A stretch of 63,646 nucleotides of DNA, counting the filler, from Chrysochromulina tobinii (lineage: Eukaryota): assembly GCA_001275005.1 (NCBI GenBank). It is 8 parts of 8 records of this genome, joined end to end, with 100 filler letters (N's around TTAATTAATTAA, not from the genome) between each part and the next. Parts side by side here need not be neighbours in the genome. Positions count along the whole stretch, not along the records: positions 1 to 13,410 come from JWZX01000643.1; 7 more parts are not named here. One strand, 5' to 3'. The notes under the pieces were generated by a model. That model did no database searches, had not been told where the DNA came from, and saw nothing but the letters and a program-made list of their open reading frames with translations. The position numbers were made by a program, and so were the translations under genes. This document shows, piece after piece, positions 331 to 56,305 of this stretch. Numbering within the stretch: position 1 is the stretch's first letter; each line of letters starts with the position of its first letter.

Positions 331-2065
331 GGCCAGGGTGGCGAACAGGGCGGAGGCTCGCCTTTCGACATGTTCTTTGGCGGCGGGCAGCGCAAAGACA
401 CCGGCCGTGGCAAGAATATGGACATCGAGCTGCCAGTGACCCTCGAAGACTTGTATGCGCGCGCCCATGGCCTCCGCTTGATTACGCTTGATTACGCTTG
501 ATTACGCTTGATTATGCTTGTGTAATGCTTGATTACGCTTGATTACGCTTGTATGCGCGCGCTCATGGCCTCGGATGGGCTCTGATTGCCTCTTGATGGC
601 CTCTGATGGCCTCTCGATTGCCTCCCTCATCAGGTACAATGGCAATGAGAAGCTCTGATTGCCTCTTGATTGCATTTGATGACCTGATGATTGCCTCCCT
701 CATCAGGTACAATGGCAATGAGAAGCTCGCGACGGTCAAGCGGCGCATCGTTTGCCGCAACTGCAAGGGCAAGGCCCACCTGCCGCGATGTGCTGAGTGC
801 GGTGCCTGCCCGAAAGAAAAGAAGATGGTACATCGGCGTGCGGGGCCTGGGATGGTGGTGCAGCAAGAGGTGCGTGCGCCGCTCAGGGCCGTTGATGACC
901 TCTAATGAGCCCTGATGAGCTCTGATGAGCTCTGATGAGCTCTGATGAGCTCTGATTGCCTCCCTCATCAGGTGCGTGCGCCGCTCAGGGCCGTTGATGA
1001 CCTCTAATGAGCCCTGATGAGCTCTGATGAGCTCTGATGAGCTCTGATTGCCTCCCTCATCAGGTGCCTCGCTCATCCAGTGTCGTTGATGACCTCTTGA
1101 GTGCCTTTGAGTGCTTCTGATTCCTGTCTATGGCAGGTCTGATGATTGAGCCGAAGGAGAAGTGATTGGCCTTGATTGCACTTGATTGCGCTGAATTGCG
1201 CTGGATTGCGCTTGATTGGCCTTGATTGCGCTTGATTGGGCTTGATTGGCAACCGTACGTTCGCCCCTTTTATGGCAGGTGATGGTCGAGTCGAAGGAGA
1301 AATGCAAGCGTGAAGACAAGCGACTCACAGCGACCATCGAGAAGGGTATGCCCTGATGAGCCCTGATGACCTCTAATGACCACTGATGACCACTGATGAC
1401 CATCGAGAAGGGTATGCCCGATGCGGAGGAGATCGTCTTCAAGTACGAGTCCGAGCATGAAAACGCTCACGACGGCGCCTCCGCTTCCCCCCCCCCCACA
1501 GGTATGCCTGATGCGGAGGAGATCGTCTTCAAGTACGAGTCCGAGCAGAAACCGGGCCAGATCCCGGGAGACGTGGTGCTCAAGCTCAAGACGACGCCCC
1601 ACCCGATGTTCACACGCTCCCGCGACTCGTTGTCGATGAAGATCGCCATCCCGCTGCGCGCGGCACTGCTGGGCTTCGAGACCTCGTTCAAGCACCTGGA
1701 TGGGCACACGGTCACGCTCAAGCGAACGACCGTGACCAAGCCGGGGCAGGTGGGCAACACGCTGATGACGACTGATGACGCGCCCTGATGACGACTGATG
1801 ACGCCCTGATGACCTCCTGATGACGCCCTGATGACCTCCTGATGACGCCCTGATGACGACTGATGACGCCCTGACGATGTCCTGGCAGGTGATCCGCATC
1901 AAGGGCGAGGGGATGCCTAAGCACGGCACGCCGTCAGAGTTCGGCGATCTGACCATCACCTTCTCAGTCGACTTCCCCACTACCGTCGAGGCGGCCCTCG
2001 CCCAGGGGCTTGAGAAGCTCCTCCCCACATTCAGCGCCTCCGACCTGCGCATCCTCAGCAGCTGA
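331..2065 (+). CDS. DnaJ/Hsp40 co-chaperone (DNAJA/DNAJB11-like), 5'-partial; exons approx 331-452, 707-869, 1279-1345, 1502-1749, 1889-2065
   Basis: Spliced exons read PFDMFFGGG..LPVTLEDL|YNG..CRNCKG..CAECGAC..TIEKG|MPD..PGDVV..HPMFTR..ALLGF..HLDG..IKGEGMP..GDLTITFSVDFP, the Hsp40 G/F, Cys-rich and C-terminal motifs. All joins are GT-AG and in frame. Confidence 0.9.
689..706 (+). promoter_or_regulatory. Recurrent 3' splice-site cassette A, GATTGCCTCCCTCATCAG (representative copy)
   Basis: Exact or near copies ending at 633, 706, 971, 1063, 40595, 58258, 60253 (+) and 6423, 6539, 6585, 6631, 7788, 7847, 15943, 20856, 21022 (-, approx). Confidence 0.85.
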
Positions 2066-3137
2066 GCGCGCCGTGTTGGGCGACCTGCGCATCCTCAGCA
2101 GCTGAGCGCGCGCCGTGTTGGGCGCATGCCGTCAGCTCGCAGGGCGGCGCCGGCCTGGGCGCGCCGTGCTGGGCATCCCTACTTCGAGACGTACGCGCCG
2201 CGACGGGCGCAGCTATAGGCCGCGGCGCTGGGCAGCGTGAACAAACTGGGCAGCGTGAACAAGGCGCCGACCGGCATGTGACGGGGCATGTGACCTTGAG
2301 ACATGTATGGTCGGGTCAGTGCTACATAGTGGGTCGCTGGGCCGCGCCGTCGCGGGCGTTATGCGTGGCTCACTGGCCGGTGGCTCTCGTGTGAGTCGTC
2401 AGCCCTACATCGCCCAACACGGCGCGCGCCCATCGGTCGCCCTCGGCCGTGCATCGTTGCTCAACTTGTGTCCCCCCGCCGGACCGGTTCGCGGTCGTCG
2501 GGGGGTGGGGGTTACGGGTGTGCGCACTTATACGTTACCGCGAATACAAGCCGAGCGGCCGGCCCCGGGGGATCGGGCTTGATGCGGCTTCGGCCTTCGG
2601 GGGTTATATGCGTCGCTCCGGCGTCTAGATCTCGCGCATCGTACGATTTGCCGTCCGCACACGCGCTGCTGTAAACGTAACACACCTCCACAGCTCGCAA
2701 CCGCCCGGCGCAGCCAACGCCTTTACGAGTACGCGACGGACCGCCGCGTGCGCGCCGCGCCCGCCGCACCGAACAAGCGCCGCCGCACGAGGGCCGAGAG
2801 CCGGGGGGCGCCGAGGCGCGCGGGACGGGCCCTTATCCACACTGACCACTCTCACGACATGCCAGTCGGCGGCTCGGCGCCTGGTGGTTCACACCTGGTG
2901 GTTCACAGGAACATAGCTGCCAAAGCATGCATCGGACACGGCAGTCCGCGTTCATGCCGAAATAGGCAAGAGGAACGGCGCATTCACAGTCCTCACGCGC
3001 CTTCATGCCAGGACGAGCTCGGAGAGGTCGATAGGTACGTATCTCGGACGTATCTCGGACGTATCTCGGGGAATTGGCTCCGCCGCCCCAATGGCGCCGT
3101 CGCGGGCGTCGTCGCGGGCGCCATCGCGGCGAGGCGC

Positions 3138-4955
3138 TCAGCCGAGGGGGACGGCGGCCGCGGCCTCATCAGGGGAGATGAACTCTTCAGCTTCGTCAGT
3201 CTTGTACAAGATCTCGAGCACCTGGGCGCGCGAGAGTGGCGCGCGAGAGTAGCGCGCGAGAGTGGCGTCATCGGTGGTGTCATCAGTGGTGTCATCGGTG
3301 GTGTCATCAGTGGTGTCATCAGCGGCACCTTGTCAAGGAAGGGGATCTGCGCCCCCTCGTAATCAATCTCGTAATCAATCTCGTAATCAATCGTAATCAA
3401 TCGTAATCAAGCGGCACCTTGTCAAGGAAGGGGATCTGCGCCCCCTCGTAATCAATCTCGTAATCAATCTCGTAATCAATCTCGTAATCAATCGTAATCA
3501 ATCGTAATCAATCGTAATCCATCGTAATCAATCGTAATCAAGCGGCACCTTGTCAAGGAAGGGGATCTGCTCCCCCTCGTGGCTCTGGCAGAGCACCTCG
3601 ACCTCGCGCAGCTTCGAGTAGTAAAAGTCACGCTGCGCGCGCACCGAGGCCAACATGACGACACTCAGTCGCACTCCGCGCGGCGCTCAGTTTCGTCAGT
3701 CGCACTCCGCGTGACGCTCAGTTTCGTCAGTCGCACTCCGCGTGACGCTCAGTTTCGTCGATCTCGCGAGGGCCATCAGGCGGCCAGCAGTGCGCCATCT
3801 CGCGCTCGAGATTCTCCGTTGCGTAATCAGTGATGTAATCAGTGGCGCCATCACACCTCGCGCTCGAGATTCTCGACGCTCATCTTGAGCTCCGTGACCT
3901 CGAGGGCGAGCTGCTTCGCGCCGCCCTGAGCGCCCGCACCGGCGCTCGACGCCGCACTGGGCACCTCCGACGCTGCCCGCGCAGACGAGGCCGGCATGCG
4001 CTTGGGCGCCTCCTTGGGCGCCGCCGTGGGCGCGGCGGGCGGCGGCTTGGGCGGCGGGGCCTCCTTAGGGGGCGCTGCCTTTTTAGGGACGGGAGGCGCC
4101 GTAGTGGCGGCAGGCTCGTTGGCCGCCTGGTCGGCGAGCGGCGCCGCTGTACCCTCGGGGGCCACGACGGCGCCGTTGGGTGCATGCATATCCCAGTAGC
4201 ACTTCATAAACTGAGAGGCACCCGGACGCGAAGGCGAGCGCCGTGGTGAGCGAGGTGAGAGGCATGCATGCAGGGGGCACGCCTCAGGGCGCCGTGGGCT
4301 GTGACGCCGTGTTGGGCAGTCGCGCCGTGTTGGGCAGGTCGGGCACTGGCGCCGTGTTGGGCAGTATCGCGCCCACGGCGGCGCCGCGGGGGCAGCGTGC
4401 AGTCGCGGGGTGCCCACGGCGGCGCCGCGGGGCCAGCGTGCAGTCGCGGGTCGCTGGCGTCCGAAGAGGTGCTCGGCGGGCGTGCCTGCACAAATTCCAT
4501 GTTGGTCTGGAAGGACTTTTTGGAGAGTTTGTCGATCTCAATGAACCGGTCGATCTTCTTCTGGCTGAACGCTTTCTGGAGCTGCTTGAAGTTGTTGATG
4601 TAGTCGACCTCGATCTTCGCGTCGCGCTTCACCTTGGCCATGACTTTGCATTCCGGGTAGATGGAGTCGATGATCTGGCAGTAGACGACGCCCGAGCCGA
4701 GGTCCTCAATTTTCTGGAAGCTCGGCTGGAAGTGCTGCTGGATCCACCCGATCAACTCCTTGCGCCCCACGAAGTAACCCTCGTGCATCTGCCATCGCCG
4801 CACGAGGCGGACGCACGCACGAGAGCATGGACGCGCGCCCGCTCAGCACGCTGGGACGCGGTGCGCGCGGCTGCGCGCATAGGCGCTGCGGACGCGCGAG
4901 GGCGATAGGCTCCGAGGGGCGGCGAGGGTCAACCCACCATGCCCATCGCCGCCAT
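3138..4955 (-). CDS. EB1: Microtubule end-binding protein EB1/MAPRE; exons 4955-4938, 4788-4486, 4210-3857, 3632-3549, 3221-3138
   Basis: MAAMGM|MHEGYFVGRKELIGWI..IEDLGSGVVYCQIID (CH domain) and ENLERE|RDFYYSKLREVEVLCQ..VLEILYKTDE (EBH domain). Confidence 0.93.
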
Positions 4956-5361: not shown

Positions 5362-6853
5362 TCAGCAGTCATAATACCCCTTGCTGCTGCTCTCCTCCTC
5401 GTCCCCCGCGGTCGCCGCCCCCCTCCTCGCCGGGGACGGCGCCCATGTCACACTCCGGTCCGTGCGCTCGGTGCGCTCGCCACAGCGCTCGGTGCGCTCG
5501 CCACAACGCGCGCTCGATGGGCGTGGCGTGCGCGTTGTGGCGAGCACCGAGTGCGTGTTCTCTAGCGCGCGGTACGTGCGAGCGACCCGCGCAGACGCGC
5601 TCCCGCCCCCCTCCCAGCCCGCGCCCCCCTCCCAGCCCCGCCCCCCTCCAGCCCCGCCCCCCTCAGCCCCGCCGCTGCCGCCCGCTTGGAAGGCGTCGAC
5701 TAGTTGGACCAGTGACGAAGCGCGCACTCGGTCGCGCATCTCGCGTGCCTCCGCATGCCTCTCGCGTAGCAGCGCCTCGCGACGCTGGTCGATCGCGCCC
5801 GCGGCGGCGCGCAGCGTGCTCGCGCCAACGCGCCTTGAGTGACTGAGGAAGGCTCGTGCCTGCTTCGTCGAGATCGCAATCTCGCTCACCTGAGGGAGGG
5901 ACGCACTCAAGTGTCATCAAGCGCAATCAGTCTGAGGAGGGACGCCATCGATCTGAGGAGGGACGCAATCAATCTGAGGAGGGATGCAATCAAGGGCCAC
6001 AAAGATCGCAATCTCGCTCACCTCCGAGCCCGAGCTCGCAATCTCGCAATCAGATCGCAATCTCGCTCACCTCGTCATGGAGCGCCTCCACGTGGCCCAT
6101 CCAACGCGCATCCCTCAGCCGCTTATCCGCCTTCCGCGCGGCCGCCTCGCGCTTGACGCCGCGCGCGCGCAGCTGGTTCAGTTTCGTCACCCGCTGCCGC
6201 TCCTGCTGCGCCAACGCCCGTTGCGACCAGGCGGCCCTCTGCAGGTCCGCGCCGTGCCGAGCGTGCTCGGCGCGCTGGGCGGCGAGGGCCTGCTCGCGCC
6301 GCACCTGTGGGGAAGGGCGAGGCGCCGTGGTGATCACTTGCATGCAAGGCACGTCATCAGTGGTAATCAGCGAGGGCCTGCTCGCGCCCGCACGTCCTCG
6401 AGGGTCATCAAGCGCAATCAATCTGATGAGGGACGCAATCAAGGGGCCACTGAGCTCGCAATCTCGCGCCGCACGTCCTCGAGCCTCGAATGCCAATACT
6501 CGGCGCGCTTGGACGCATGGAGCAGCCATCGATCATACCTGATGAGGGAGGCCATCAGAGGCGTCATTCGAGGCCATCCGGTTCCTGATGAGGGAGGCCA
6601 TCAGAGGCGTCATTCGAGGCCATCCGGTTCCTGATGAGGGAGGCCATCAGAGGCGTCATTCGAGGCGTCCTTCGAGGCAATTCGACGTACTCAGCGAGGA
6701 GCGTGCTGTCCGTGTCGAGGGCGTCAATAGGGCCACCATTCTGCTCAAGCGACGTGACCTTGCCCACGTCCTCGAGGCTGCGACATCCCTTCGCCGCGGC
6801 CAAGATGAGCCAGGACGGTGGCTCGCCGAAGCTGAAACCGCCACCCGCCGGCA

Positions 6854-6895
<42 letters not shown>

Positions 6896-8292
6896 TCTCG
6901 CCGCCCTCTCCGCCGCAGCCGCCGCGGCCTGGCGAGTGCGCACCTGTGGGGAAGGGCGAGGCGCCGTGGCGAGCACTTGCATGCGAGTGCACAGCACGGC
7001 CCGGCGAGTGCACAGCACGGCCGGGGCTGCCGGTACGTCCTCCCCCGCCAAGCGTCGCGTCCGCTCGCAGAAAGGCCGCCAGGGCAGTCACCTCCCTCGC
7101 CGCCTGTGTGGCGGCCTCGGCCGCCTCGACCGCATCCTTGGCCGCCGCCTCCGCCCCAGCTACCGATCGGTTGGTGGCGACGGTGAGCGCCGTGGTGAGC
7201 GCCGGCGAGGCGCCACAGGAGACATAAGGGGTCGACGGGCGCGCGTATGGTGGCGAGCGAGCCGAACGGCGACGAGCGTTGTCGTCGTCGTCGTCACTGT
7301 CGGCGTCGTCACTGTCGTCCTCGTCCTCGTCCTCGTCCTCGTCGCCCTCGATGCTGTTGCCGTCCTCGACGCCTAGAAAGTCCTCCGAGTACGGCGGAGG
7401 GCGCGCGAGCAGGCGCGTCGCAACCGCCGTCGCCGCATAGGATCGCTCGAGCACCTGTGGGGAAGAAGAGAGAGCGCCGTGGTGAGCACGTGCATGCGAG
7501 GCCCATCTTCGGTTCAGCGGCCGAGAGGGCGCCGTGGTGAGCACATGCATGCGAGGCGAGGGCCATCTTCGGTTCAGCGGCCGCTCGAGTACCCGTTCGG
7601 CGAGCGGCGACCGAAATTGATGGGTCAGTGCAGCACGCTCGGGCGGCGCCGGTAAGGCGAGCGCCGAGGTGAGGCGAGCGAGCCGCAGCTCATTCGCGTC
7701 GGAGCGTCCCAATCGACGATCGAGATCGGCGTGCGGCTCGATGAGGGCGTCGAGGCGCTGTGGGGAATCGAGGCGTAGCCCCATCACCTGATGAGGGAGG
7801 CAATTGGTGGCCATCAGCGGACATCATCAAGGGGCAATCAAGTTCCCTGATGAGGGAGGCAATTACCGAAGCGGGCGATGGCTCTTCACAAGGCGTCGAG
7901 CTGGGCGCTTCGGCCTTCCACAGCGGCGGCGTCGGCGTCGTGCTGGTGAAGCGCGAGCGCGTGCCGGTGGAGGCGCCGGTGGAGGTGGCGGAGGAGGTGG
8001 AGGAGGAGGTGGCGGTGGAGATGGCGGACGCGCCGGAGCGCCGTGTTGAGCTGGATCCCGCCTTAATCGCAGCTGACTCGGCGGGCTCCGGCGGCGCTGG
8101 TGTGAAGGCTCTCGCTGGTGTGAAGGCACTCGCGGCTGTGGGGGTGGCGGCTGTGGGGACGGCGACGACAGCAGCGAAACGGCCGGGGGGGCTTGGCGGA
8201 AGATCGAGTGGCGCTGGCCGGCGCCCGCCGCCACCGCCGCCGCCGCCGCTGCTGCCGCTGCTGCCACCGCTGCTGCCGCTGCTGCCACCGCT

Positions 8293-25900: not shown

Positions 25901-26494
25901 CCGGTGGTGCCCGAAGACGAAATCCCGCTTCGAAGCGCTCGTGATGGCGCTCGACCGATGACTCCGCCTTCCCGACCCGGATCTGGGCCATCGCTGCTTC
26001 AGAAGACGGACCTCATCAAGCGTAAGCTGGGCCTCAGTGGCAACGTGCCGGCTGTCGCCACTACTGCGGCCCAGCAACTGGGCGTCGACGCGACCGCCAA
26101 GACCACGGCAGCAGTCATCAACGAGTGCTACCAGCAAATCCTTTCGGCCAAAGCCATTCCGCAGGCAGGCGAGGGAGCGCCTCGACAGCCAGCCTCGACG
26201 TCGACTCGCCATCGGAGAGACAGAGGCGTTTCTGAGGAGACCGAGGAGACCGAGGCTCCCGAGGTGTCCCTGGGGGGTCATACTCTGAGTTTGGAGAGGA
26301 TCAAGCTTCGGCAAGACTCAAGCTCATCTCCGGCTTCGGAGGCGATCAGCGCGCAGATGAGGTACCTCCAGGCGAGCGAGAAGTCGATCTCGGAAGATCT
26401 AGAATCTTCGCTCGAATCGCCGCCCGCGTCGTCAGCCCCGAAGACCGGCCTTGACGCGGAACAGTCAAGGTTCATGTACATGCTGCGGGTTTAG
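22944..26494 (+). CDS. Large Pro/Ala-rich protein with SHOCT-like, IQ and SURP/SWAP motifs (5'-partial; two overlapping ORFs 23032-25638 and 25457-26494)
   Basis: LRQLNELLDDGLITPELFELKRQEVL; TIQKLARGRQAR; PEELKTIIDKTATFVARNGPDFEMRI..FSFLHANDPFHSYYRSKL. Confidence 0.65.
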
Positions 26495-26853
26495 CATTTA
26501 ACTGCGATGGACGGTTGCGGATTCAGACGAACCATAGTCGATCCAGGGCGAGCGTCAGACGCGGCGCGCGTCGGCGCTGGTGCACGCGCAGCTTCCGGCA
26601 CCGAGCAGCCGCGAACAGACCGATGGACTTTGATGGAGCATGTCAAGTGAGGTTGACTCTTGAGCGACTTTTGAGTTGAGTGAGGGGAGGCTGATGCGGC
26701 ATACGTGCTTTGTTGTTTTCTTCCGAGGTCCGCGTTTAAGGCTTGTAACGACGTAACGAAACTTGTAAGTTTCAAGTTTGGTTGGGCTGCATCTCGGTGC
26801 AACCCTGCGTTCAGCGTGCACGTTCAGCGCTGCAGCTCGGGCGCCACTCCCCA

Positions 26854-29800
26854 ATGCCGGGCTGCTGTTCAGTTTGCTGCACGCTCCTACGCCGCAAGGA
26901 GGCGCTCCTCAAGGCGAATCGCTGCTGCTCGAGCGTCTTCGAGATCCTGATCCCCATCTTCCTCAGCGCCATCGTGCTGGTCGGCGCCCTCGTCTCTGAG
27001 ATCGAAATGTTCCCGACCGAGCTGTTTGTGCCCGATAACTCAACGATCGCATTTCGGGATCTTCAGGGGCTACTTCCTGACATGACCTTCAATAGCTTCA
27101 CGAGCTTCGCGAGCTTGCCAACCTTTGTGCCGCCGCTTCCTCTCTTTCTCGCGTACAATGCCATGTTCACCTCTGCATTCCCCAAGCCCACCGAGTGGGT
27201 CGATGGTTTCAATCCATACGACGGCTCGTACTTGGCGGTGGCTCCGGACACGCCGGAGGTGCGCGCCTTTGTTCAGAGCGTCGTGAGCCCCGCGCCGCGT
27301 GGGTGGATGATCGACCCGACGAATATGGTTGGCGCTTCGGTCCACGCCTCGCTCAAACACGTCAGCATGATCACCAACAGGGACTTCAACATTTCCAACT
27401 TTGGCCATCAGCCGCTTGAGGTGCGCTACCTGCCGAGCGACGAGGCGCTTGAGGTCCTTGCGCGTGCACGGGGGGCCATCTGGGCGGGCCTCGTCTTCAC
27501 CAGCATCCCGGTCGACGGCGTCGGCACCTGGGAATACAAGCTGCGGTACAACGCCTCTTTGCTTCCGCAAGCCAACAGCAGGTTTGATAGGTTCCCGGGA
27601 CAGGGTACGAGCAGCGCGCTCTCGAAGCAGTTTTTCCAATACTACCGCAGCGGCTTCCTCTCACTGCAGGCCGCGATCAACGAGCGCATCCTCCTCATCA
27701 ACACGCGCGTCAACTCGACCATATCGGCGGTCGAAGATGACGTGCTGCCGTATGGCATGCCCTTCCCCGTGCTGGAGAACAAGCTCAACAGCTTCTTCGC
27801 GTTCGCGGGCAACTTGGTCGGCCTCGTGTGCGTCCTCGCTTACCTGATTCCAGTCTCGACCACTTTGCGCACGCTCGTCCTCGAAAAGGAATCGAAGCTG
27901 CGCGAGCAGCTGCTCATGATGGGCGTCACCCTGCCCGCCTACTACGGCTCCGTGCTCACGACGTTTGGCGCGTCCTTCGCCATCATCGCGGCCATCAGCG
28001 GCGTGATCATCTCGATCGGTTGCTTCACGCACTCCTCGCCTGGCATCGTGGCCATCCTCTTCATCCTGTTTGCACTCGCGTCGCTTGCGTTCACCCTCGC
28101 TATCTCGTCGCTCTTCCGCAACTCGCGCGTCGCGGCGCTCGCGGGGCCTCTCATCTTCTTCCTCACCGCGCAGTTCTACAACGTCTTCCTCGAGCGTGGT
28201 GAGCTGCAGGAGGGGATGAATGGCGCCAAGGCGCTCACCTCGCTCTTCCCCGCCATGGGCTTCTATCTGGGCGCCTCTCTCATGGCCAAGTACGAGGGCA
28301 CCCAAATCGGGATCACAGCCTCGAACTTTGCCACGGCAGGCGGCGGCTTCTCCGTCGCGAACTCGATCGCGATCCTCTTCTTCGACATCTGGCTCTGGCT
28401 CTTCATCGCGTGGTACCTCGACCAGGTCATGCCCTCCGACTACGGCCTCCAGCAACGCCCGTGGTTCCTTTGCTCGCCCTCCTACTGGTGCGGAGACAAG
28501 AACGAGCCACTTGCTCTGCGCGCTCTCATCGCCAACGATGCGAACCGGCCGCTCGCCGTCGAGCCGATAGATGAGCCGATGGGCGCGAGGGGCGTGGTAG
28601 TGCAGGGACTTCGGAAGGTGTGGCCGCCGCGCCGCGTCGCTGTCGAGTCGTTGGATATGGAGATGCGATCTGGGCAGATTACGTCCCTCCTTGGCGCCAA
28701 CGGCGCGGGCAAGACCACGACGATCTCGATGCTGACTGGCCTGATGCCGCCAACGTCGGGCAACGCGACGATTGACGGCCTGAGCATCACGTCGCACATG
28801 GCCACGATCCGCTACTCGCTCGGCGTCTGCCCGCAGCAAAATGTCCTCTTCGACCAGCTGACCCCTGTGCAGCACCTGAGCCTCTACGGTGCCATCAAGG
28901 GGCTCGAGGGCGCGGCTCTGCGGGAGACGATCGACCTTCTGATCAGCAAGGTGATGCTGAGCGAACGCAAGGACGTACAGGCCAGAAATCTGTCGGGCGG
29001 CCAGAAGCGCAAGCTGTGCCTTGCAATCTCGCTCATCGGCGGCGCGAAGACGATCTTCCTCGATGAGCCGACGAGCGGCATGGACCCGCACTCGCGACGC
29101 TCGATCTGGGCGCTGCTGCGCGAGCAGCGCGAGGGACGTACGATCGTGCTCACGACGCACTTCCTCGACGAAGCCGAGATCCTCTCCGATCGCATCGCCA
29201 TCATGGCCGAGGGCAAGCTCAAGTGCGTCGGCTCCCCCTTATTCCTCAAGGAGCACCTGGGCACCGGCTACGCTCTTACCATCACCAAGACGATGGTCGC
29301 TGCCTCGGCCAAGTTTGATAAAGAGATGTTGCTCACGTTTGTGAAGAAGCACGTGCCGCTTGCGACGCTCCAAAGCGAGACGAAGCGCGAGGCGAGCGTG
29401 CGCCTGCCGGGCGACAAGCTCTCGATGTTCCAATCGCTCTTCGAGGAGCTCGACAAAAACTTCCGCCAGCTGGGCATCGATGACTATGGCGCCACGTGCA
29501 CCACCCTCGAGGACGTCTTCCTCAAGATCAACGAGAATGCGCTCCAGCGGCTCGAGGACCAAAAGGAATCGCACAACGATGCGAATCTCCAAAAGGCGCA
29601 CAACGATGCTCGGCTCGAGATCCCACCTCCCAAAGGCGAGCTGATGAAGGGCGCCAAGTCGTCTCCGGACAGCCGCGCGGCACCCCAGGTTTTGGCCCCT
29701 ATGTCCCAGACTGGGGCCACCATGCACGTGTACAGCGGCCTCGTCGCTAAGCGCCGGATCGCCGCGCGCCGTGACTGCTACACGACGTGCTGCATGATCT

Positions 29801-31966
29801 GCTTCCCCGTGTCGCTCGTCATCGGCGCGCTCGCGCTGCTGGGCGTCGCGGGCAGGATCACCGCCATCCCCGACCCAGTTGCCCTGCTCCCCGACCCGCT
29901 CTTCCCGAACGGCTTTGGCGGAGACATCCCGCGGCCGGTGCCGCTCACCGTGCCCAAGGGCAACCTCGCCGAGACTCTGCTTCCACAGCTGGCCGAGGGC
30001 GTCTGCCGGAAGAAAGGTTGCGGATGGATGGGCCTCCAATATCGTGCCAACTCGACTCGGAACGGATTCCTTGAGGTGACGCAGGAGATGGAGGCCTATG
30101 TGCTCGCAAACCCGAGCGAGGCGCGGCCGGCGGCGATGGCATGGAGCCCCGGCGTGCGCATCCCCCCTGCGCCCACTTCCTATAAGGACGTGGGGCCGTA
30201 TTGCGGCGACGCGTATTGCGCCTCCCTCAGTTCCGGCGACGCATATTGCGCCTCCCTCAGCACGCCGGGCCCGTGCCCAGCGACTAGCAACAGCAGCGTG
30301 AGTGTCGTGACTCTTATGCACAACGCAACCAACTGGCACTCGATGCCGATCCTGATCAATACGCTCTACGACGCGCTGCTCCTGCAAGCGACGGGCGGCG
30401 CGAGCACGATCACGGGGTACACCCAGGACCTGCCGCTCGATGACGCGAGCAAGGCGTACATCGACTCGTTCATCGCCGTCTTTGCCGCCATCCTCATCAT
30501 GGTGCCATATTCCTTTGTGGGGGCGACGTTTGTGACGCCCCTCGTCCGTGAGAAGGAATCGGGCTCGAAGGAGATGCAGTTCATCTGCGGCGTTGGCACG
30601 GTGACCTACTGGTTCGCATCATGGACGTGGGACCTGTGCATGTATCTGATCATCGAGCTCGCATCCTTCATCGTCTTCATCATCTTCAATCGCGAGGAGT
30701 TCATCGGCACACCCGAGGCGTTCTGGGGCACCATCTTGATCCTCCTGGGCTTTGGCTGGTCGGTGCTCGGGCTGTCGTCGATGGTCTCCTTCTACTTCAA
30801 GACGCCCTCGAATGCGCTGATCGTGATGATCGCCTTCCACTTTCTGACCGGCTTCGGCATGGTCGTGGCCGACTTTATCCTAGCGAACATCGAATCGACC
30901 AAGGAGATCATCAAAGGCCTGCGCCACTTTTTCCGCATCTTCCCGGCCTATTGTCTCGGCCAAGGGTTCGTGACGCTCGCGACCCGCAAGTCGACCAAAG
31001 CGATCAGCGCCCTCATCCCGGGGCTTCCTTCGATTCCAACGCCTGGGCTGTATGAATGGGACCAGCTTGGCGCGATCATCTTTTACCTCTTCGTCACCGG
31101 CCTCATCTTTGGCCTGGCGACCCTCGGGTTCCAGTACGGCAGCTCGTACGTCGCCCTGCGCCAGCGCATGTCCGTTTCGGGAGGGCTCGCCGCCGCGACG
31201 GGTTCCACAAGCACCACCGAGCAGAGCGCCCTCGAGGATGATTCGGTCATCGAGGAGCGCCGGCGTGTGGACGCCGGCGACACGAAGGACTCGATGCTCG
31301 TGCTCAGCCACATGCGCAAGGTCTTCACGGGCGTCTCCGTCAACCGGAAGACGACCCAAAAGATCGCTGTGCGCGACCTCTCGCTGCGCATCGACGCGGG
31401 AGAGTGCTTCGGCTTCCTCGGCGTCAACGGCGCCGGCAAGTCGACAACCTTCTCGATGCTCACGGGCACGCTCGTGCCGACCTCGGGCGATGCGACTCTC
31501 AACGGCATGTCGATCCTGTCCGAGCAAGAGAAGATCCGCCGGCTCGTGGGCTACTGCTCGCAGCACGATACGCTCGAGCACCTGCTCACCGCGCGCGAGA
31601 CGCTCCGCATGTACGCAAGGATCAAGAAGGTAGATCCCGCCATCATTGAGTTCGAGGTCGACCAGCTCATCAAGGATCTCGATCTCGGCAAGTTTGCGGA
31701 CAAGCCCGCGGGCACGTACTCGGGCGGCAACAAGCGCAAGCTCTGCGTCGGCATCTCGTTGATTGGCAACCCGCAGCTCGTGCTGCTCGACGAGCCTTCG
31801 TCGGGCATGGACGCGGCGTCCAAGCGCTTCCTGTGGACACTGATCAAGCGGCGCACGGCGCAGGTCTGCACAGTCCTAACGACCCATTCGATGGAGGAGT
31901 GTGAGGCGCTCTGCGGCCGCATCGGCGTGATGGTCGACGGCACCCTCCGCTGCCTCGGCCCCATTC
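26854..31966 (+). CDS. ABC transporter subfamily A (full transporter), 3'-truncated by gap, intronless
   Basis: Two TMD-NBD halves: LGANGAGKTTT/LSGGQKRKL/LDEPTSGMD and LGVNGAGKSTT/YSGGNKRKL/LDEPSSGMD; EKESKLRE, TTLEDVFL. Confidence 0.96.
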
Positions 31967-32086
31967 NNNNNNNNNNNNNNNNNNNNNNNNNNNNNNNNNN
32001 NNNNNNNNNNTTAATTAATTAANNNNNNNNNNNNNNNNNNNNNNNNNNNNNNNNNNNNNNNNNNNNTCGCCACCGCCACCTTCTCC

Positions 32087-35000
32087 GCCACCTCCATCGC
32101 ACCCTCCATCGCCACCGCCGCCCTCGCCGCCGCCGCCCCCGCCTCCGCCGCCCACAAGCTATTCTGCCCTGCTGGCGCTCGGGACCTACCACACGTGCGC
32201 GTACCTGACAAACGGCGCGCTCCTCAAGTGCTGGGGCGCCAACGGCAACGGCCAGCTTGGCGATAATACGACGACCCAACGCGCCACCCCGACCACGATC
32301 GACGTCGGCGGCGCCGTCGGGCTGCTGGCGCTCGGAGGCTCCTGCACGTGCGCGTACGTGACGAGCAGCGCGCTCCCTCAAGTGCTGGGGCTACAACGGC
32401 AACGGCCAGCTCGGCGACGGCACGACGACCCCACGCGCCACCCCGACCACGATCAACGTCGGCGGCGCCGTCGGGTTGCTGGCGTTCGGAGGCCCCCACA
32501 CGTGCGCGTACTTGACGAACAGCACGCTCCTCAAGTGCTGGGGCTCCAACTGGGCCGGCCAGCTCGGCGACGGCACGACGACCCAACGCGCCACCCCGAC
32601 CACGATGGACGTCGGCGGCGCCGTCGGGCTGCTGGCGCTCGGATACTCCCACACGTGCGCGTACCTGACGGCCAGCGCGCTCCTCAAGTGCTGGGGCTAC
32701 AACTACAACGGCCAGCTCGGTGACGGCACGACGACCCATCGCGCCACCCCGACCACGATCGACGTCGGCGGCGCCGTCGGGCTGCTGGCGCTCGGAGACC
32801 ACCACACGTGCGCGTACCTGACGAACAGCACGCTCCTCAAGTGCTGGGGCTACAACATCTACGGCCAGCTCGGCGACGGCACGACGACCCAACGCGCCAC
32901 CCCGACCACGATCGACGTCGGCGGCGCCGTCGGGCTGCTGGCGCTCGGAGGCTCCCACACGTGCGCGTACGTGACGAACAGCACGCTCCTCAAGTGCTGG
33001 GGCGCCAACTACTTCGGCCAGCTCGGCGACGGCACGACGACCCAACGCGCCACCCCGACCACAATCAACTTCTGGGGCACCGTTGGGCTGCTGGCGCTCG
33101 GAGGCTCCCACACGTGCGCGTATGTGACGAACAGCACGCTCCCCAAGTGCTGGGGCTACAACTACTACGGCCAGCTCGGCGACAACACGACGACCAATCG
33201 CGTCAGCCCCTTTTCGCCGCCTGCTCTATGCGGCACCCTCTCGGCAGACACGTTCCTCGTCGCGGGGGGTCAAGTCTACGTTCTCACGTGCCAGGTGTTC
33301 GTGCCCTCGGGCGTCGTACTGCGTATCGCGCAGGGCGTCACCATTTACGCCTCGCCGGTGGCTGCCGGTGGCGGCGGCGCGCCCGCCCTGATCGTCGAGA
33401 AGGGCGGCTCTCTGCTCGCCGAGGGCTCTGCGACTGCGCCGATCACATTCACTGCCTTCAACCCCACCGAGTCATCGTCCTCGTCGTCGGTGTCGACCGA
33501 CCCTACCGTGCTCGAGACGCGCGGCAAGTGGGGCGGGCTCATCCTGCTCGGCAGCGCGCCGACCAACGTGGCGACCACCACGATCATCGAGGGCATCACC
33601 GCGAAAACGTACGGCGGCACCAATCCGACCGACTCGTCGGGCTCCCTGCAGTACGTGCGCGTGTGGCACGGCGGCGCGGTCGTGGGCGCGAACAACGAGA
33701 TCAACGGCATCACCTTCGGCGGCGTCGGCTCCGGCACCATCGTCGACCACTGCGAGGTGGCGTACAACGTGGACGACGGGTTCGAGTTTTTCGGCGGCAC
33801 CGTGAACGTCAAGTACCTGTCGGCGCTCTTCGTGGGCGACGACGGCTTCGACACGGACCAGGGCTACATTGGCAAGGGCCAGTTCCTGATCGTCATCGAG
33901 GGCCTGAGTGGCGACCACTCGATGGAGATCGACTCGGGCATCGGCTCGAATCAGGACGTGACCCCGCGCTCGCACCCGGCCTTCTACTCGTTCACCTTGA
34001 TCGGCGGAGGCACCGGTACTGGCGCGCGCACGGGCGAGCTGATCCACGTCAACGACGGCACGGGTGGCAAGTTCGGCAACGGCATCCTGGCGTACCCGCA
34101 CTTGAACGGCCTCCTCTTCGAGGACTGCGGCTCGACGCTGAGCTACACGCAGACGCTGCCGGCGGCCTCGGTCAGCATTTCGAACCCCGGATACTTTTAC
34201 TTCTCGGCCAACAACATCATCGACACGGCGACGACTGCGTCGCAGTTCGCTCTGCTCGCCGGTGGCTCCGGCGTCGCCGCCTGCACGCCCGCGGACACGT
34301 GGACGGCGGTTCTTGGTGCCCCCGGCTTCGTTGCGGTCAGCGCCGCCACTGACCTCGCGGAGGGCTCCGCCACCTTCAACCCTCTGCCGTCCGCCACCGG
34401 CGCGGCGTGCACGGGCACCAAGGACGCACTCCCCAACAGCGACCCCTTCTTCTCGTCGGTGAGCTGCAAGGGCGCGTTCGGCTCCTCGACGGACAACTGG
34501 CTCGCCGGCTACTCGTGGCTCGCGTGCAGTGGCAAGATGGCTGGCGCCACGTGCCCGGGCGTACCGGCGACGTTGTTTGCTGCGCTTGGTTCCTCTGTGG
34601 TTGCGATTGGAGGGACCATCTCCAGCTCGTTGGCCCTCGTCTCTGGCACTTCGTACCTGCTCACGTCGCAGCTCTTCGTGCCCTCTGGAATGGCCCTGAA
34701 CATTGAGGCCGGAGTCATGGTGTACGCGCTTCCAGCCGCCTCGCCAACCAGTGCTCCGGCGATCGTGGTCTTGAAGGGTGGCAGGATCGTTGCGCCGGGC
34801 ACGGCGACCATGCCGATCACGTTCACGTCCGTGCTTGCGGAGTCGGCGCTCGTGAGCTCGGCCACCGCCTCCACGGACTCGAATGAGAACGCCATCACGC
34901 TCGGCGAGCGCGGCAAGTGGGGTGGCCTCATCCTGCTCGGCAAAGCGCCGACCAACATGCCGACCAGCACGCAGATCGAGGGCATCACCGGCTACACGTA

Positions 35001-40500: not shown

Positions 40501-42125
40501 CAGTGGCCGCCATCGGCTACATGTGAGCCTCGATAGCCTCGATGGCTGATTGCCACTTCTTGCCACTGATGACCTCTGATTGCCTCCCTCATCAGGTGAG
40601 CCTCGATGGCCTCGAGTGAGGAGGCCTTGCATGCAAGTGCTCACCACGGCGCGCCCCTTCCCCACAGGTGAGCCTCGATGGCCTCGAGGTACTCCGGTCA
40701 CCCGTGCACCTCCGTGTGAGTGCGGCGCCGCCCGACGTGGCGCGCTTCCAACTGACGGGCGAAGGGCTCCAGGCAGCCAACGCTGGCGAGCCCGTGCGTC
40801 TGTGCATACGCTGCTTCGACGCGTTTGGCAACCGGCTGCGGCCGCCGCACGGCTTGCCACTATCGCAGACGAACGCCGTGTTCGGCATCGCCATCGTCGA
40901 CAGCGGCAAGGGCAGCAGCGGCAGCGGCAGCAGCGGCAGCGGCAGCGGCAATAAGGGGCGAGCAGCAGCCAAGGCGAACGGTCTGACGAAGCTCCCGCGA
41001 GAGTCTCAAGAGCTCGTCAATCTGCCGGAGTTTCGTCAGGAGTTTCGTCAGGAGCAGCAGCAGCAGCAGCAGCAGCAGCTCGTTCCGCGCCAGCCGCACG
41101 TACCCCTGCGAGCAGGGCACTGCGGTGTCCTAGCCGGCCTCCGCCTCGGCTTCGACTCGATCATAGAGTCGATGCCCTTTGAGGGCAGTTGGCTTGAGGC
41201 GGACGAGTACAGCCTCGCATTGGTCGCCGAGCGCGCGGGAGATTTTGAGCTGCACGTGTGGGTCGAGCTCACGGGCCGGGGAGGTGGGCGCGCCGCACGC
41301 GAGCAGTTGCCAGGCTCGCCGCTCGCGCTGAACGTGCAGCCCTGCCGCCCTAGCGCGGCCACATCGATCATTTGCGCGCCCGAGCCGCTCAAGTCGGGAA
41401 CGCTCACGATGGCCGCGGGTCCCGCCGACATCAGCTTCCGTGTGCAGCTCCGCGACGAGTACGGGAACACGACCCCCGCTAATGAGAGAGCGCTGAAGGC
41501 ACTGGGCATCGTCGCGCACGCGCCCGACGCTGAGCGTCCTCTGTCGGTCACGCGCGTCTCGGACGCCCTCGGAGAGTGCTTGGTGTCCTACCAACCTGCT
41601 CTGTACCCGATGCTCGTGGGCGAATACCGGATCGCCATCATGCTCGGGCACGAGATCCTCGGCGAGTCGCCACTCGTCTTCGCGGTCACGCCTGGCCCAG
41701 CGGACGCCCCGAACTGCGTCATCAGCATGCCCAGCCGTGCGCCCATCTACGATCCGTACTCGAATAACCGACCCTTCAGTGCGACGCTGACGGCGTTCGA
41801 CCAGTTTGGAAACCGGCTGTGCAGGGGCGGTGCAAACGTCATGGCGCGCGTGCAGCAGGTGGAGAGAAACGGCGAGACGACGGGCGTTCCATTATCGGCG
41901 AATGTGGAGGACTGCAAGGACGGCGAATACCGCTTCACCTTCACCTGGCATCGTGTGAGCTTGGTGCTGCTGCAGGTGCGCATCGAGAACAGTGATCTCG
42001 AACCGCAGCACGTCGAATTCTTCGACCCACTCGCGCAGATGGCGCAGAGGGCGAGGGCCAAGTCACCGCCACCAGAGCAGGAGGAGAGCGACGGGGACGG
42101 TAGAGGCGAGGAATCAGAGGGTTGA
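37565..42125 (+). CDS. Filamin/ABP280 Ig-repeat protein with IQ motifs; intron 40523-40667
   Basis: FTIVARDAFD..GGDPFVV..DTGDGRYAVEF..GTYSVCVSLHGAKVAGSP and further copies; IQSIFRG and IQACARG motifs. Confidence 0.85.
40629..40667 (+). promoter_or_regulatory. Recurrent branch/acceptor cassette B, GCATGCAAGTGCTCACCACGGCGC-Yn-CCCCACAG (representative copy)
   Basis: Copies near 1455, 40629, 55244/55304/55364, 55847, 57397, 57923, 58922 (+) and 4240, 6305, 6944, 7455, 7530 (-). Confidence 0.85.
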
Positions 42126-48075: not shown

Positions 48076-48806
48076 TCACGTGGTGCGCCCGTCGTTGAAA
48101 TCGACCCACGAGCCACCCGCTTTCATCATCTCGACCTCCTCCTTGAGGTCGTCTTCAGAGTACCCCGACGCGACCACATTCCTCCAGAAGGCAAGGAACT
48201 CGTCCCACGTGATGGTGGCGCTCTTGTCCTCGTCGACCTCGTTGAACATGGCGGTGGCGTTCACCTTGGCAAAGTTCTTGCCCCAGAACGCGATCGCCTC
48301 ATCCTTGGACACCTCGCCGTTTTTGTCGCCTGCGCGAGCGCAGAGGCGGGCAGCCGTGGTGGGCGTGAGAAGGTCATCCGTGGTGGGCGTGCGAAGGTCA
48401 TCCGTGGTGGGCGTGAGAAGGTCATCCGTGGTGGGCGTGAGAAGGTCATCCGTGGTGGGCGTGCGAAGGTCATCCGTGGTGGGCGTGCGAAGGTCATCCG
48501 TGGTGGGCGTGCGAGAAGGTCATCCGTGGTGGGCGTGCGAAGGTCATCCGTGGTGGGCGTGCGAAGGTCATCCGTGGTGAGTGAGAAGGTCCAGCAGCAG
48601 CAGACCAGCCACGAGGGGCGCGCCGCACCGTCCATCGCGTCGAAGAAGGACCTGAGCTCCTGCTCGAGGGCCTCTGACAGCGCCGCCGCATCCTTCTTGA
48701 ACCCATGGGCGAGGTCGTCGCTCGATTTCGAGCGGTGGCCGCTGCCTACGGAGACGCCATCGAACCCGACGTGCTTGTCCTCTGGGGTCGATGACGCGCA
48801 ACCCAT
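48076..48806 (-). CDS. Small EF-hand Ca-binding protein with MGC acylation signal; exons 48806-48629, 48329-48076
   Basis: MGCASS; FFDAMD|GDKNGEVSKDE and MFNEVDEDKSATITWDEF loops. Confidence 0.88.
48354..48592. repeat. 24-bp intronic minisatellite, about 10 copies
   Basis: ccgtggtgggcgtg(a/c)gaaggtcat tandem. Confidence 0.95.
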
Positions 48807-53706: not shown

Positions 53707-55686
53707 CGGCGGCAGCGGCAGCAGCGGCAGCGGCGGCAGCAGCTGTACGACACCCGCGCGGAAAGGGCCGCTGCGCCTGTACGTGCTGGTCGGCCTCTCC
53801 CTCGCCGCGGGTACGGGGCTGGGCAAGGTCGCGTACCGGTACGTGAACTACGCGACGGGTACGGTGCTCAAGTCGATGAAGCTGCTGCCCGTGATGGCCG
53901 TCTCCGTTTGCTGGCTCCATCGGAGCTACACGAGGCTCCAGGTGGCTGCGGCCGTGCTGATGGTCGGCTCGGCCGTGTGCTTTGGGCTGGGCGAGGCGGA
54001 GCTCGAGCCGAGCTTCCATCCGCTAGGCTTGCTGCTCTCGTTTGGGTGCCTGGTCGCTCAGGTGACGAATCTGATGACCTCTGATGACCTCTGATGACCT
54101 CTGATGACCTCTGATGACCTCTGATGACCTCTGACGACCTCTGATGACCTCTGACGACCTCTGATGACCTCTGATGACCTCTGATGACCTCTGATGACCT
54201 CTGATGACCTCTGATGACCTCTGATGGTCGCTCAACAGTGATGAATCACCTCCGGATGCTCAGCACGTGATTGCCAATTGTTTGGCCACGTGATTGCCAC
54301 GTGATTGCGCATTCTGAGTGCCATAAACGTCAATTGGGTTGAGTCTCGATGATTGCCTCTGATGACCTCTGATGCCATCGATTGAGCCTCGTTGATGACC
54401 TCGGATGGCGCAGGCGCTCTGATGACCTCTGTTGACCTCTGATGATCGTTGATGACCTCTGATGGCGCAGGCGCTCCAGAACAACACGTCTGACCGGCTG
54501 CTGCGCGACTACGGTGTGAACGTTCACGAGGCGATGGCTTGGTCGAACGGTGTGGGCGCCGTCGCGGTGCTCTTTGTCACGCTATGGACGGGCGAACTGT
54601 GGAGGGCACTTGCCTATTTTGGAAACACCGGCCTCGGCTCGGCGCTGCTGCTACTGCGCTCGCTCCTCTTTTATGTGGGGGCTTTGCTCTACACGATACT
54701 CATCAGGTGAGTGACCTCGGAGTGACCTCGGAGTGACCTCGGAGTGACCTCGGAGTGACCTCGGAGTGACCTCGGAGTGACCTCGGAGTGACCTCGGAGT
54801 GACCTCGGAGGGCCATCTGAGTGACCTCTGCCGTCGACTCACTGACTGTATGCGGTGTGAATGTGAATGTGAATGCCCTCTGCCGTCGACTCACTGACTG
54901 TATGCGGTGTGAATGTGAATGCCCTCTGCCGTCGACTCACTGACTGTATGCGGTGTGAATTCACAGTGAGAGTGGGGCCGTCACCGCCGTCTTCGTGACG
55001 ACGATGAGGAAAGCGCTCACGGTGGCGCTCTCATTCCTCATCTTCCCCAAGCCATGGTGATGACCTCTGATGGCTGCTGATGACCCTTGATGGCCAATGA
55101 TGGCCAATGAATTGTCACTGATGGTCGCCGATTTCCACTGACGTCGCAGGTGCTCAAAATACTCTCTTGGGCTACTGCTGCTGCTGGCGGCCATCGTGTG
55201 CGAGGTGCGCCCCTCTCCGCTCCTCTCAGCTTGCAACGGCTCGCATGCAAGCGCCCATCACGGCGCGGCACGCCCCTCTCCGCTCCTCTCAGCTTGCAAC
55301 GGCTCGCATGCAAGCGCCCATCACGGCGCGACACGCCCCTCTCCGCTCCTCTCAGCTTGCAACGGCTCGCATGCAAGTGCCCATCACGGCGCGTCGCCTC
55401 CCCTCTCCTCCCGTCACAGGCGCGCGGCAAGCCAGCCAAGGACCATCAGCGCTCGCCGCCGCCCACCAGTGAGCATGCACGCGCTCCATATGGCGCGGTG
55501 TGCGGCGGCGCAGACGACAGCCCAGGCGCCGAGCTGGGCGCCGAGCTGCGCGGGCTGGGCGCCGTGCTGGGCGCGAGCAGCGGCGGGATGCGCGCCCGGG
55601 AGGGCGCCCGGGATGTTGCCTCTCCGGAGCCCAAGGATGATGACCACGACGGCGCGGGCGAGGAGCAGCCGCTCGTGCGCCCGTGA
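53459..55686 (+). CDS. Nucleotide-sugar/PAPS transporter (SLC35B/UAA family); exons 53459-54061, 54471-54706, 54967-55056, 55151-55204, 55420-55686
   Basis: YRYVNYATGTVLKSMKLLPVM, FHPLGLLL, GAVTAVFVTTMRKALTVALSFLIFPKP; all joins in frame. Confidence 0.9.
54071..54226 (+). repeat. Intronic decamer array (CTGATGACCT)n; an 11-mer array (GAGTGACCTCG)n follows at 54709-54809
   Basis: Direct tandem repeats. Confidence 0.95.
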
Positions 55687-56305
55687 CGAAGGCGTCGTAT
55701 TGGGCACCATGACCACGACGGCGCGGGCGAGGAGCAGCCGCTCGTGCGCCCGTGATGAAGGCGTCGTATTGGGCACCACCCGTGTGCCACCCGTGACACG
55801 TCGAATCGGCCGTTGCACTCGACCCTTCTATATGGACCTCCGCCTTGCATGCACGTGCTCACCACGGCGCCCTCGGTCGAATCGTCGTTGCACTCGACAC
55901 GGATTTTGCGTGGTATTCACGCAGCATACAGGCGTACATAGCCGCGGAGTCTAACAGATGCGTGCAGGGTGCAGCTCGAGGTTCCATAGAAAATAGGTAA
56001 CTGCTTAAAACTCGCGACCCCGGCCCCGCGACTGCCGCATGTGGCATGTGCCGTCGCGAATGAACAAGGAGCGTGCCTTCCGGCCTCACTTACTTGACCG
56101 CCCGTTAAGGCCGTGTCCATCACTCGCTCACTCACTCACTCACTCCCTCACTCCCTCACTCGATTGTGTGATATCCAGGCTCTTGGAGTGCGTGGGGACC
56201 ACGACGAAACTGACATGAAAACCTAATTAGGTTCGGCAACCCCGCGTGCGCAAAAGGCAAGCCGACGGCCGCAAAACCTCTCGTCGCGCCTGTTCTGGCG
56301 CGATC

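Follow-up and report, generated by a model that had tools for sequence, protein, structure and literature searches.

The stretch of DNA examined here (63,646 nucleotides, nt, of the Chrysochromulina tobinii assembly GCA_001275005.1; hereafter the 63.6-kb window) carries in its first 2.1 kb, on the plus strand, the 3′ two-thirds of a DnaJ gene. Intron 2 of this part of the gene consists of four complete GT..AG units which lie directly against each other, and every intron of the gene bears the footprints of duplications. As read from the sequences, these footprints reflect an ongoing birth and growth of introns by duplicative insertion, of which the zero-length exons between stacked units are a by-product. 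The process is ongoing, since a contig from another sample lacks intron 3 and because a repeated block of the neighboring gene is found in three copies in the window and in two copies in that contig. The gain and lengthening of introns, together with the empty-site allele, is a more solid and more interesting result than the recursive splicing mechanism which the initial annotation had put forward for intron 2.

The host gene and the four units of intron 2

The exon model of the DnaJ gene was built from the sequence and then compared with the RNA contigs of runs X12-X15, which belong to four coded studies, possibly of one campaign, and in which rare forms are dropped. All positions refer to the whole window. 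A slash marks the border between an acceptor and the following donor or exon.

331-452 (+), DnaJ exon, sequence model
453-706 (+), intron 1, composite, with an inner CAG/GT at 633/634; RNA joint 452→707 in 4/4 runs
707-869 (+), exon 2 of the window part of the gene, ending ...VVQQE; RNA contigs cover 707-867 and join onward in 4/4 runs
870-971 (+), unit 1 of intron 2, 102 nt; donor GTGCGT, five decamers of the TGATGAGCTC type, end TGATTGCCTCCCTCATCAG; donor 870 used in RNA
972-1063 (+), unit 2 of intron 2, 92 nt; copy of unit 1 minus one decamer
1064-1136 (+), unit 3 of intron 2, 73 nt; an older, diverged copy of the unit 1/2 type; donor GTGCCT, end TATGGCAG
1137-1278 (+), unit 4 of intron 2, 142 nt; after the array a unique pyrimidine-rich tail; acceptor 1278 used in RNA
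1137-1164 (+), head of unit 4, decayed copy of the head of exon 3
1163-1248 (+), array of unit 4, decamers of the CTTGATTGCG type
1129-1164 (+), left copy of a direct repeat of ~36 nt, with the putative old acceptor TATGGCAG and 26-28 nt of the exon 3 head; right copy at 1271-1304
1279-1345 (+), exon 3, starting VMVESKEKCKREDKRLTATIEKG... (VMVESKEK); RNA contig piece 1277-1344 and joints
1346-1501 (+), intron 3, 156 nt; two nested duplications (families D7 and D9); RNA joint
1502-1749 (+), exon 4, sequence model and RNA joints
1750-1888 (+), intron 4; array of the CTGATGACGCC type with GGCAGGTG on either side
1889-2066 (+), exon 5, sequence model and RNA joint

The joints 452→707, 869→1279, 1345→1502 and 1749→1889 were each found in one contig per run in 4/4 RNA runs, at a depth of 9-28, and all four have GT..AG ends. 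The spliced translation is open and DnaJ-like. In Pfam, DnaJ_C falls in exons 4 and 5, and the J domain (DnaJ) in an upstream exon recovered from L001, a contig of 44 kb which belongs to another assembly. In a local tblastn with the spliced protein, more than 30 related genes (75-91% identity) were gapless across the junction between the codons QQE and VMV. This, together with the RNA joint 869→1279, defines 870-1278 as one intron of 409 nt which is wholly missing from the mature message.

All four units of this intron start with GT and end with CAG; the letters preceding them are GAG, CAG, CAG and CAG, and each unit is followed by GT. The coordinates of the four units and their CAG/GT junctions, as given in the initial annotation, were reproduced, and the DnaJ codons named there as flanking the intron (QQE and VMV) are right. 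The inner CAG/GT sites are located at 971/972, 1063/1064 and 1136/1137. Against these three internal CAGGT, Markov-1 simulations of this intron gave a mean of 0.085, and 0/5000 reached three, with the qualification that the three are not independent events, being copies of each other or of the real border between acceptor and exon 3. The window-wide rate of CAGGT is 0.93 per kb.

The comparison of the units shows how the inner sites descended. In the alignment, units 1 and 2 are identical save one extra TGATGAGCTC decamer in unit 1 (repeat family D2), as the initial annotation had it; the 77 nt from the GT of unit 2 and its last 50 nt are identical to those of unit 1. The 20-mer core of unit 3 (1078-1097) shows 2 mismatches (18/20) to the respective cores at 884-903 and 986-1005, the ends of unit 3 resemble those of units 1 and 2, and the core of the three units is absent elsewhere in the window. 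Units 1 and 2 are thus best read as a very recent tandem copy, and unit 3 as the same unit copied at an earlier time. At its start, unit 3 is strongly unlike units 1 and 2 (first 14 nt), and units 1-3 may have come about either by plain tandem duplication or by repeated insertion.

Unit 4 is of another origin. The stretches 1129-1164 and 1271-1304 align around an exact core, TATGGCAGGT; over ~36 nt there are 4 mismatches and an indel of 2 nt. The exon copy noticed earlier at the start of unit 4 also covers 8 nt before the acceptor. Unit 4 derives from a duplication of these ~36 nt, which include the old acceptor together with the exon 3 head, and the end of unit 3 (1136) was likely the earlier acceptor of intron 2. 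In detail, while 1136 was working as an acceptor, a stretch over it and the first 26 nt of exon 3 would have been duplicated, with an array of the CTTGATTGCG type and a pyrimidine-rich tail between the copies. The downstream copy may then have taken over as the acceptor, shifting the working site 142 nt downstream. The inner CAG/GT sites of intron 2 are, by their sequence, inherited copies and not chance occurrences.

Units 1 and 2 might instead be an assembly artefact, in which two alleles differing by one decamer were chained, the real intron having three units. A difference of one decamer is of the kind seen between strains, as in the array of intron 4 (34 nt). The DNA contigs 699-934 and 1038-1399 were present in 4/4 DNA runs, and the former, built with k=31, passes position 868 unbroken in all of them. 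This is a weak hint at a single unit, because a true duplication of unit 1/2 should break the k=31 graph. Among the contigs listed for the four DNA runs none spans 935-1037, and k=31 contigs are unable to resolve the 92-nt exact repeat of units 1/2. Against the artefact, L001 shows the same two units and is 100% identical to the window over 4249 nt, units 1 and 2 included, with the reservation that it possibly comes from the same material as the window. The depth of 699-934 over that of 1038-1399 is 1.19-1.35 in the 4 runs, near the 1.18 expected if 868-934 is present twice. Besides, unit 3 as a diverged third copy and four other stacks are real duplications in this DNA, and a difference in the copy number of a block, between the window and the contig that lacks intron 3, was seen directly. 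An artefact is on these grounds improbable, and it would in any case still leave a stack of three units. The contig without intron 3 itself holds the 3′ end of unit 2, followed by units 3 and 4.

The empty site of intron 3 and footprints in other introns

Intron 3 can be seen before and after its gain. The contig which lacks it, L002, has 4.2 kb, comes from another sample and begins at window position 1045. It represents genomic DNA, since its collinearity with window 1045-4466 extends across the intergenic region and into the convergent neighboring gene, and it is 99% identical to window 1045-1358. Intron 3 is exactly absent from it (site L002 300-315). In the window, the same intron contains a 22-nt repeat (1332-1353/1398-1419) around a decamer array and a 47-nt repeat (1411-1457/1501-1547) around a 43-nt insert, and it keeps an uninterrupted ancestral exon sequence at 1398-1457. 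The empty site of L002 equals this ancestral copy, including a C where exon 4 of the window has a T. The 43-nt insert matches a dispersed module, described below, with up to 5 substitutions and is a diverged member of it. The filled and the empty site together represent a very recent intron gain.

The remaining introns of the gene show respective footprints. In intron 1, a block of 73 nt (579-651) is repeated in tandem at 652-724, comprising the acceptor and 22 nt of the exon. In L002, the array of intron 4 has 34 nt less, and a decamer array within the intron ending at 330 lies between the copies of a 16-nt repeat. In the neighboring gene, at 3300-3600 on the minus strand, a block of exon tail, donor and an array of the TTGATTACGA type recurs with a period of 89 nt in 3 copies. 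The same block is found in 2 copies at L002 2020-2300, where the donor of the last copy has changed from GT to TT.

None of the related genes of other organisms on the contigs L003-L034, all single gapless matches, has an intron at any of the four DnaJ positions; long contigs are included (L019, L020, L029, L030 and L034), those of 2.9-11.4 kb being apparently genomic. Two other relatives (L035 and L037) have introns at other codons, rich in CCAC and without decamers. The introns of the DnaJ gene are therefore young, since the relatives have none at the four positions and L002 has no intron 3.

Similar footprints were found elsewhere in the window, as stacks of two units and as single introns flanked by repeats, and with them the matches to a filler module:

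40523-40595 and 40596-40667 (+), two-unit stack with inner AG/GT
21161-21067 and 21066-21022 (-), two-unit stack with inner AG/GT
6070-6022 and 6021-5890 (-), two-unit stack with inner AG/GT
58889, 60181, 20928, 6474 and 46750, single repeat-flanked introns, at least five
40629-40652, 57397-57420, 58922-58945, 55847-55870, 57923-57946 and 55243-55392 (+), matches to the core of the type 2 filler
6322-6345, 6961-6984, 7474-7497 and 7529-7552 (-), matches to the core of the type 2 filler

In the three further stacks, a unit starts with a copy of the first 18-21 nt of the downstream exon. With intron 1, at least four more introns of the window carry an internal AG/GT stack, and the stacked units measure 45-142 nt. 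In two of the three stacks, the fillers of the two units are unrelated, yet both units start with one and the same exon copy of 19-21 nt, as if the target had been hit twice.

Two types of filler lie between the duplicated copies. Type 1 consists of decamer arrays, in which each decamer has the word CTGAT or TTGAT, similar to a branch site, and which often end with TGATTGCCTCCCTCATCAG or CCTCCCTCATCAG. An exact flanking direct repeat of at least 12 nt was found at 13/43 decamer-type arrays, as compared with 30/300 random placements. Type 2 is a dispersed module of ~50 nt with the core GCATGCAAGTGCTCACCACGGCGC, a pyrimidine tract and CACAG, and it ends with CCCCACAG. Its 24-mer core has 12 matches in the window (with at most 3 mismatches) against 0 expected, and the module mostly forms the end of an intron that has, as its first 11-24 nt, a copy of the next exon; that exon starts with GT. 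In this respect, the type 2 module behaves like a mobile unit bringing a 3′ splice site with it.

The window has 10 sites of CCTCCCTCATCAG. In the DNA runs, the k-mer depth at the 3′ end of unit 1 is ~26,000-34,000 as compared with ~50 for single-copy sequence, which places this end at hundreds of places of the genome. The direct repeats measure 8, 13, 15, 19, 21, 22, ~36 and 47 nt and have no fixed length. In a window-wide test, exact 12-mers starting at AG/GT were not enriched for recurrence downstream (3/173 on the plus and 7/197 on the minus strand, against a background of 3.3% for other contexts); coding repeats and N runs dominate this background, masking of period 10 hid units 1 and 2, and the test is uninformative.

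Two side observations refer to the same ends. At 6539-6631 and 7788-7847, both on the minus strand, CCTCCCTCATCAG is found two to three times in tandem inside other introns, with spacings of 46 and 59 nt; 4/5 of these tandem copies are followed by GA or GG, not by GT, and are thus decoy acceptors without a regenerated donor. Furthermore, a joint 974→920 is present in DNA runs X1, X3, X5 and X6 on a contig of 423-425 nt with a single-copy depth of ~43-57. This contig reads ...CCTCCCTCATCAGGTG and then passes straight into an array of TGATGAGCTC and a second CCTCCCTCAT end, which points to a further stacked unit at a locus that the window does not cover.

Stepwise or one-step removal of the units

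The inner splice sites of intron 2 closely match sites that are used. Donor 972 is identical over 77 nt to donor 870, which is proven by RNA, and the last 19 nt of acceptors 971 and 1063 equal those of the RNA-proven acceptor 706. In units 1-3, the A of a branch-like YTRAY motif precedes the AG by 16 nt, as compared with 14 nt in the proven intron 4 and 19 nt in intron 1, and the donor of unit 3 (GTGCCT) is plausible by sequence. It is thus quite probable that the inner sites are inherited splice sites which are still usable, and that the units can be removed one by one in any order.

It also seems rather more probable than the contrary that some transcripts lose units 1 and 2 stepwise, because the inner sites are identical to proven ones and organisms with short introns pair nearby sites. 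The inner acceptors would be transcribed first, at an ordinary intron distance (92-102 nt). The pairing of any donor with any later acceptor would leave the remaining units abutting as CAG/GT, so that all routes would lead to one message. Whole-unit duplications may then be nearly neutral, and hence accumulate, because every junction is a zero-length exon. Every partial splice product of intron 2 meets a stop codon quickly, and molecules stalled at such a product would be lost.

Several results may be set against stepwise removal. The would-be donor of unit 4, GTCTGA, has a C at +3 and is unlike the five RNA-supported donors found here (GTATGC twice, GTGCGT, GTGGGC and GTGCGC). A step through 1136/1137 is for this reason doubtful and perhaps a dead end; the product spliced there reads GAG GTC TGA, with an immediate stop. 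The initial annotation had called for a search of RNA for reads joining 869 to 972, 1064 or 1137. None of these is among the 15 listed RNA joints (of 22), in which 869→1279 is the only joint of intron 2 (4/4 runs), although contig data lose rare forms and the result speaks neither for nor against recursion. For the junction 869/972 there is the additional point that it equals the unspliced 869/870 for 77 nt, so that short reads cannot separate the two. RNA from the interior of intron 2 is limited to two unspliced contigs of 151 nt across 1136/1137 (X13 and X14, depth 2-3), which could be pre-mRNA or DNA carry-over, and the RNA depth in the bin 1104-1170 is 0-3.2; such thin cover carries no information on the order in which the units are removed. 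The 11 other listed RNA joints were rejected as splicing: their sides measure 20-44 nt, they occur in 1-2 runs each, and none with GT..AG ends is supported by every run. The joints 981→1376 and 1068→1197 among them come from look-alike repeats at other loci, since they recur exactly in DNA runs.

The alternative is that 870 is always paired with 1278 and that the inner sites are silent relics, owing to RNA structure or to a clash of U1 and U2AF. The single intron 2 joint of the RNA contigs and the poor-looking donor of unit 4 agree with it. So does the folding of the RNA: the stretch 850-1300 gives z = -2.9, with 1/100 shuffles as good, and the TGATGAGCTC decamers (893-1048) contain the palindrome GAGCTC. 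Still, the alternative has to explain why an acceptor which equals a working one of the same gene over 19 nt, and a donor which equals a proven one over 77 nt, should be silent at a normal intron distance from each other, where the acceptors are transcribed first. Moreover, transient intermediates are invisible to contigs. We regard exclusive one-step removal as unlikely.

As for the recursive splicing proposed initially, the part that stands is that complete abutting units are able to support recursion. Ratchet points are not needed to explain the sites, for which duplication suffices. A selected device, in which the inner AG/GT are kept as ratchet points needed by the cell, would account for three perfect CAG/GT junctions and for a branch-like motif and pyrimidine tract in each unit. 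On the contrary, the sites are copies by descent, the identical units 1 and 2 are too recent to bear a readable trace of selection, and the exon copy with which unit 4 begins is decaying. None of the related genes examined has the intron, which thus lacks conservation. It measures only 409 nt, and for the other proven introns of the gene (139-254 nt) the RNA gives no evidence of an intermediate. Such a device is very improbable, and inherited, still usable sites remain the preferred explanation.

Formation of the introns and relation to known systems

The footprints of the DnaJ gene and of the other introns can be combined in one scheme, and events of this kind are common in the genome and still occur. 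A stretch starting at or near AG/GT is duplicated, with filler between the copies; the filler is either an array of CTGAT-type decamers ending with CCTCCCTCATCAG or the dispersed module of ~50 nt ending with CCCCACAG. The variable repeats (8-47 nt) would fit the repair of staggered breaks or target-primed insertion better than a classical transposase. A mobile module with branch site, pyrimidine tract and AG may perhaps re-enter its own duplicated target, which starts with GT, the resulting chains being then spliced unit by unit; we propose this as a possibility that falls short of an even chance. If true, it would mean that short introns of a protist are naturally and routinely spliced in a recursive way, with at least five such introns per 64 kb, and would add a so far undescribed route of making introns with long, variable duplications (8-47 nt).

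The architecture of intron 2 resembles recursive splicing with zero-nucleotide exons, and its origin resembles that of introner-like elements and of the neointrons of Daphnia. It differs from the known routes in its long and variable repeats, in the edge of the repeat being often at AG/GT, in a filler with the 3′ site and in the stacking of whole units.

Ratchet points of recursive splicing are described for long introns of Drosophila and vertebrates and for two cases in Schizosaccharomyces pombe (bioRxiv 10.1101/226894); the same source gives the 336-nt intron of SPNCRNA.445 as a case of a zero-nucleotide exon in this yeast. The likeness is that a 3′ splice site abuts a 5′ site within the intron and that the upstream exon would meet a regenerated donor, and S. 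pombe shows that this occurs in short introns of a unicellular organism. The earlier remark that such points would be unusual in an intron of 409 nt was too strong, in view of that 336-nt intron and of at least four other stacked introns in the window. Unlike the known cases, the 409 nt here hold, by sequence, three such points, and every unit corresponds to an entire intron of normal size. In addition, the inner sites are recent duplicates, and the conservation seen in the animal and S. pombe cases is absent here.

Introner-like elements of Symbiodinium and Polarella have duplications of 3-8 nt, fixed for each class, as described by Roy et al. (bioRxiv 10.1101/2020.10.14.339549). For a Chrysochromulina sp. 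genome from a metagenome, Gozashti et al. (2022; PMC9860276) report an introner family which brings the 5′ site and has duplications of 4 nt. In common with these elements, a multi-copy filler brings the branch site, the pyrimidine tract and the AG, while the GT comes from the left copy of the target. Presence and absence between close relatives is also shared, here for intron 3 only. In the case of intron 2, the 5′ core of units 1-3 is specific to the locus, their 3′ end and the decamers are of high copy, and the type 2 filler is dispersed. On the contrary, the repeats of the present introns are variable (8-47 nt) and it is the 3′ site that the filler brings. Inverted ends were not noticed, no search having been aimed at inverted ends or at an autonomous element.

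In Daphnia pulex, neointrons are made and enlarged when staggered double-strand breaks are repaired, and the repeats measure 4-12 bp (PMC4202315). As in that species, internal direct repeats from repeated bouts lengthen young introns, and alleles with and without the intron coexist. Repeats of this type are found in unit 4, in intron 3 (nested, 22/47 nt) and in the intron ending at 330 (16 nt). The differences are that the repeats reach 47 nt here and often start exactly at AG/GT, that the filler comes from genome-wide families and that whole intron units are stacked.

Introns may also be gained by the tandem duplication of an AGGT segment, for instance in the potato RdRp gene (PMC4974935), where one copy provides the donor and the other the acceptor side, as in the introns studied here. 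The repeats 579-651/652-724 and units 1/2 are plain tandem duplications of this kind. In contrast, filler separates the copies in most events here, and existing introns have been hit as well as exons.

The stwintrons of Hypoxylaceae fungi, which need at least two splicing reactions per intervening sequence and spread as similar copies (PMC9024468 and PMC12403724), are a further parallel, both in the several reactions for one intervening sequence and in the sequence-similar copies. In stwintrons, the inner intron interrupts a signal of the outer one and the order is forced, whereas the present units are complete, abut each other and can go in any order. The identity of intron 2 as a stwintron was rejected, as its units abut and each carries a GT, a YTRAY motif and a CAG of its own.

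In the literature, no description was found of decamer arrays or of stacked introns for nuclear genes of haptophytes, and on tandem or abutting introns only the recursive splicing of animals and yeast. The genome paper of Emiliania reportedly mentions repeats in introns. A preprint (10.1101/283549) lists Emiliania huxleyi among the species with a repeat content of 25-50% in introns.

The origin and growth of introns is an old open question, for which direct pairs of before and after are rare. The DnaJ gene offers an intron which one strain has and a close relative exactly lacks, with the ancestral sequence readable inside, as well as introns that lengthen in whole blocks which are, by sequence, splice-competent. 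Zero-length exons give a simple reason for the tolerance of such blocks, as any splicing order gives the same message. If the inner sites are used, these introns would be a natural system for the recursive splicing of short introns, with units that differ in age and, for some, between strains. For annotation, the decoy copies of exons and decoy splice sites in such introns can mislead gene finders.

Two further repeats were observed in the window. At 48373-48590 on the plus strand there are approximately nine tandem units of 24 nt (GTCATCCGTGGTGGGCGTGCGAAG), with a GT start and an AAG end, perhaps within an intron of a minus-strand gene. At the end of the DnaJ gene, a stretch of 31 nt (2041-2071) with the final codons, the stop codon and the beginning of the 3′ untranslated region recurs 40 nt downstream, at 2081-2111, and the same repeat is present in L002.

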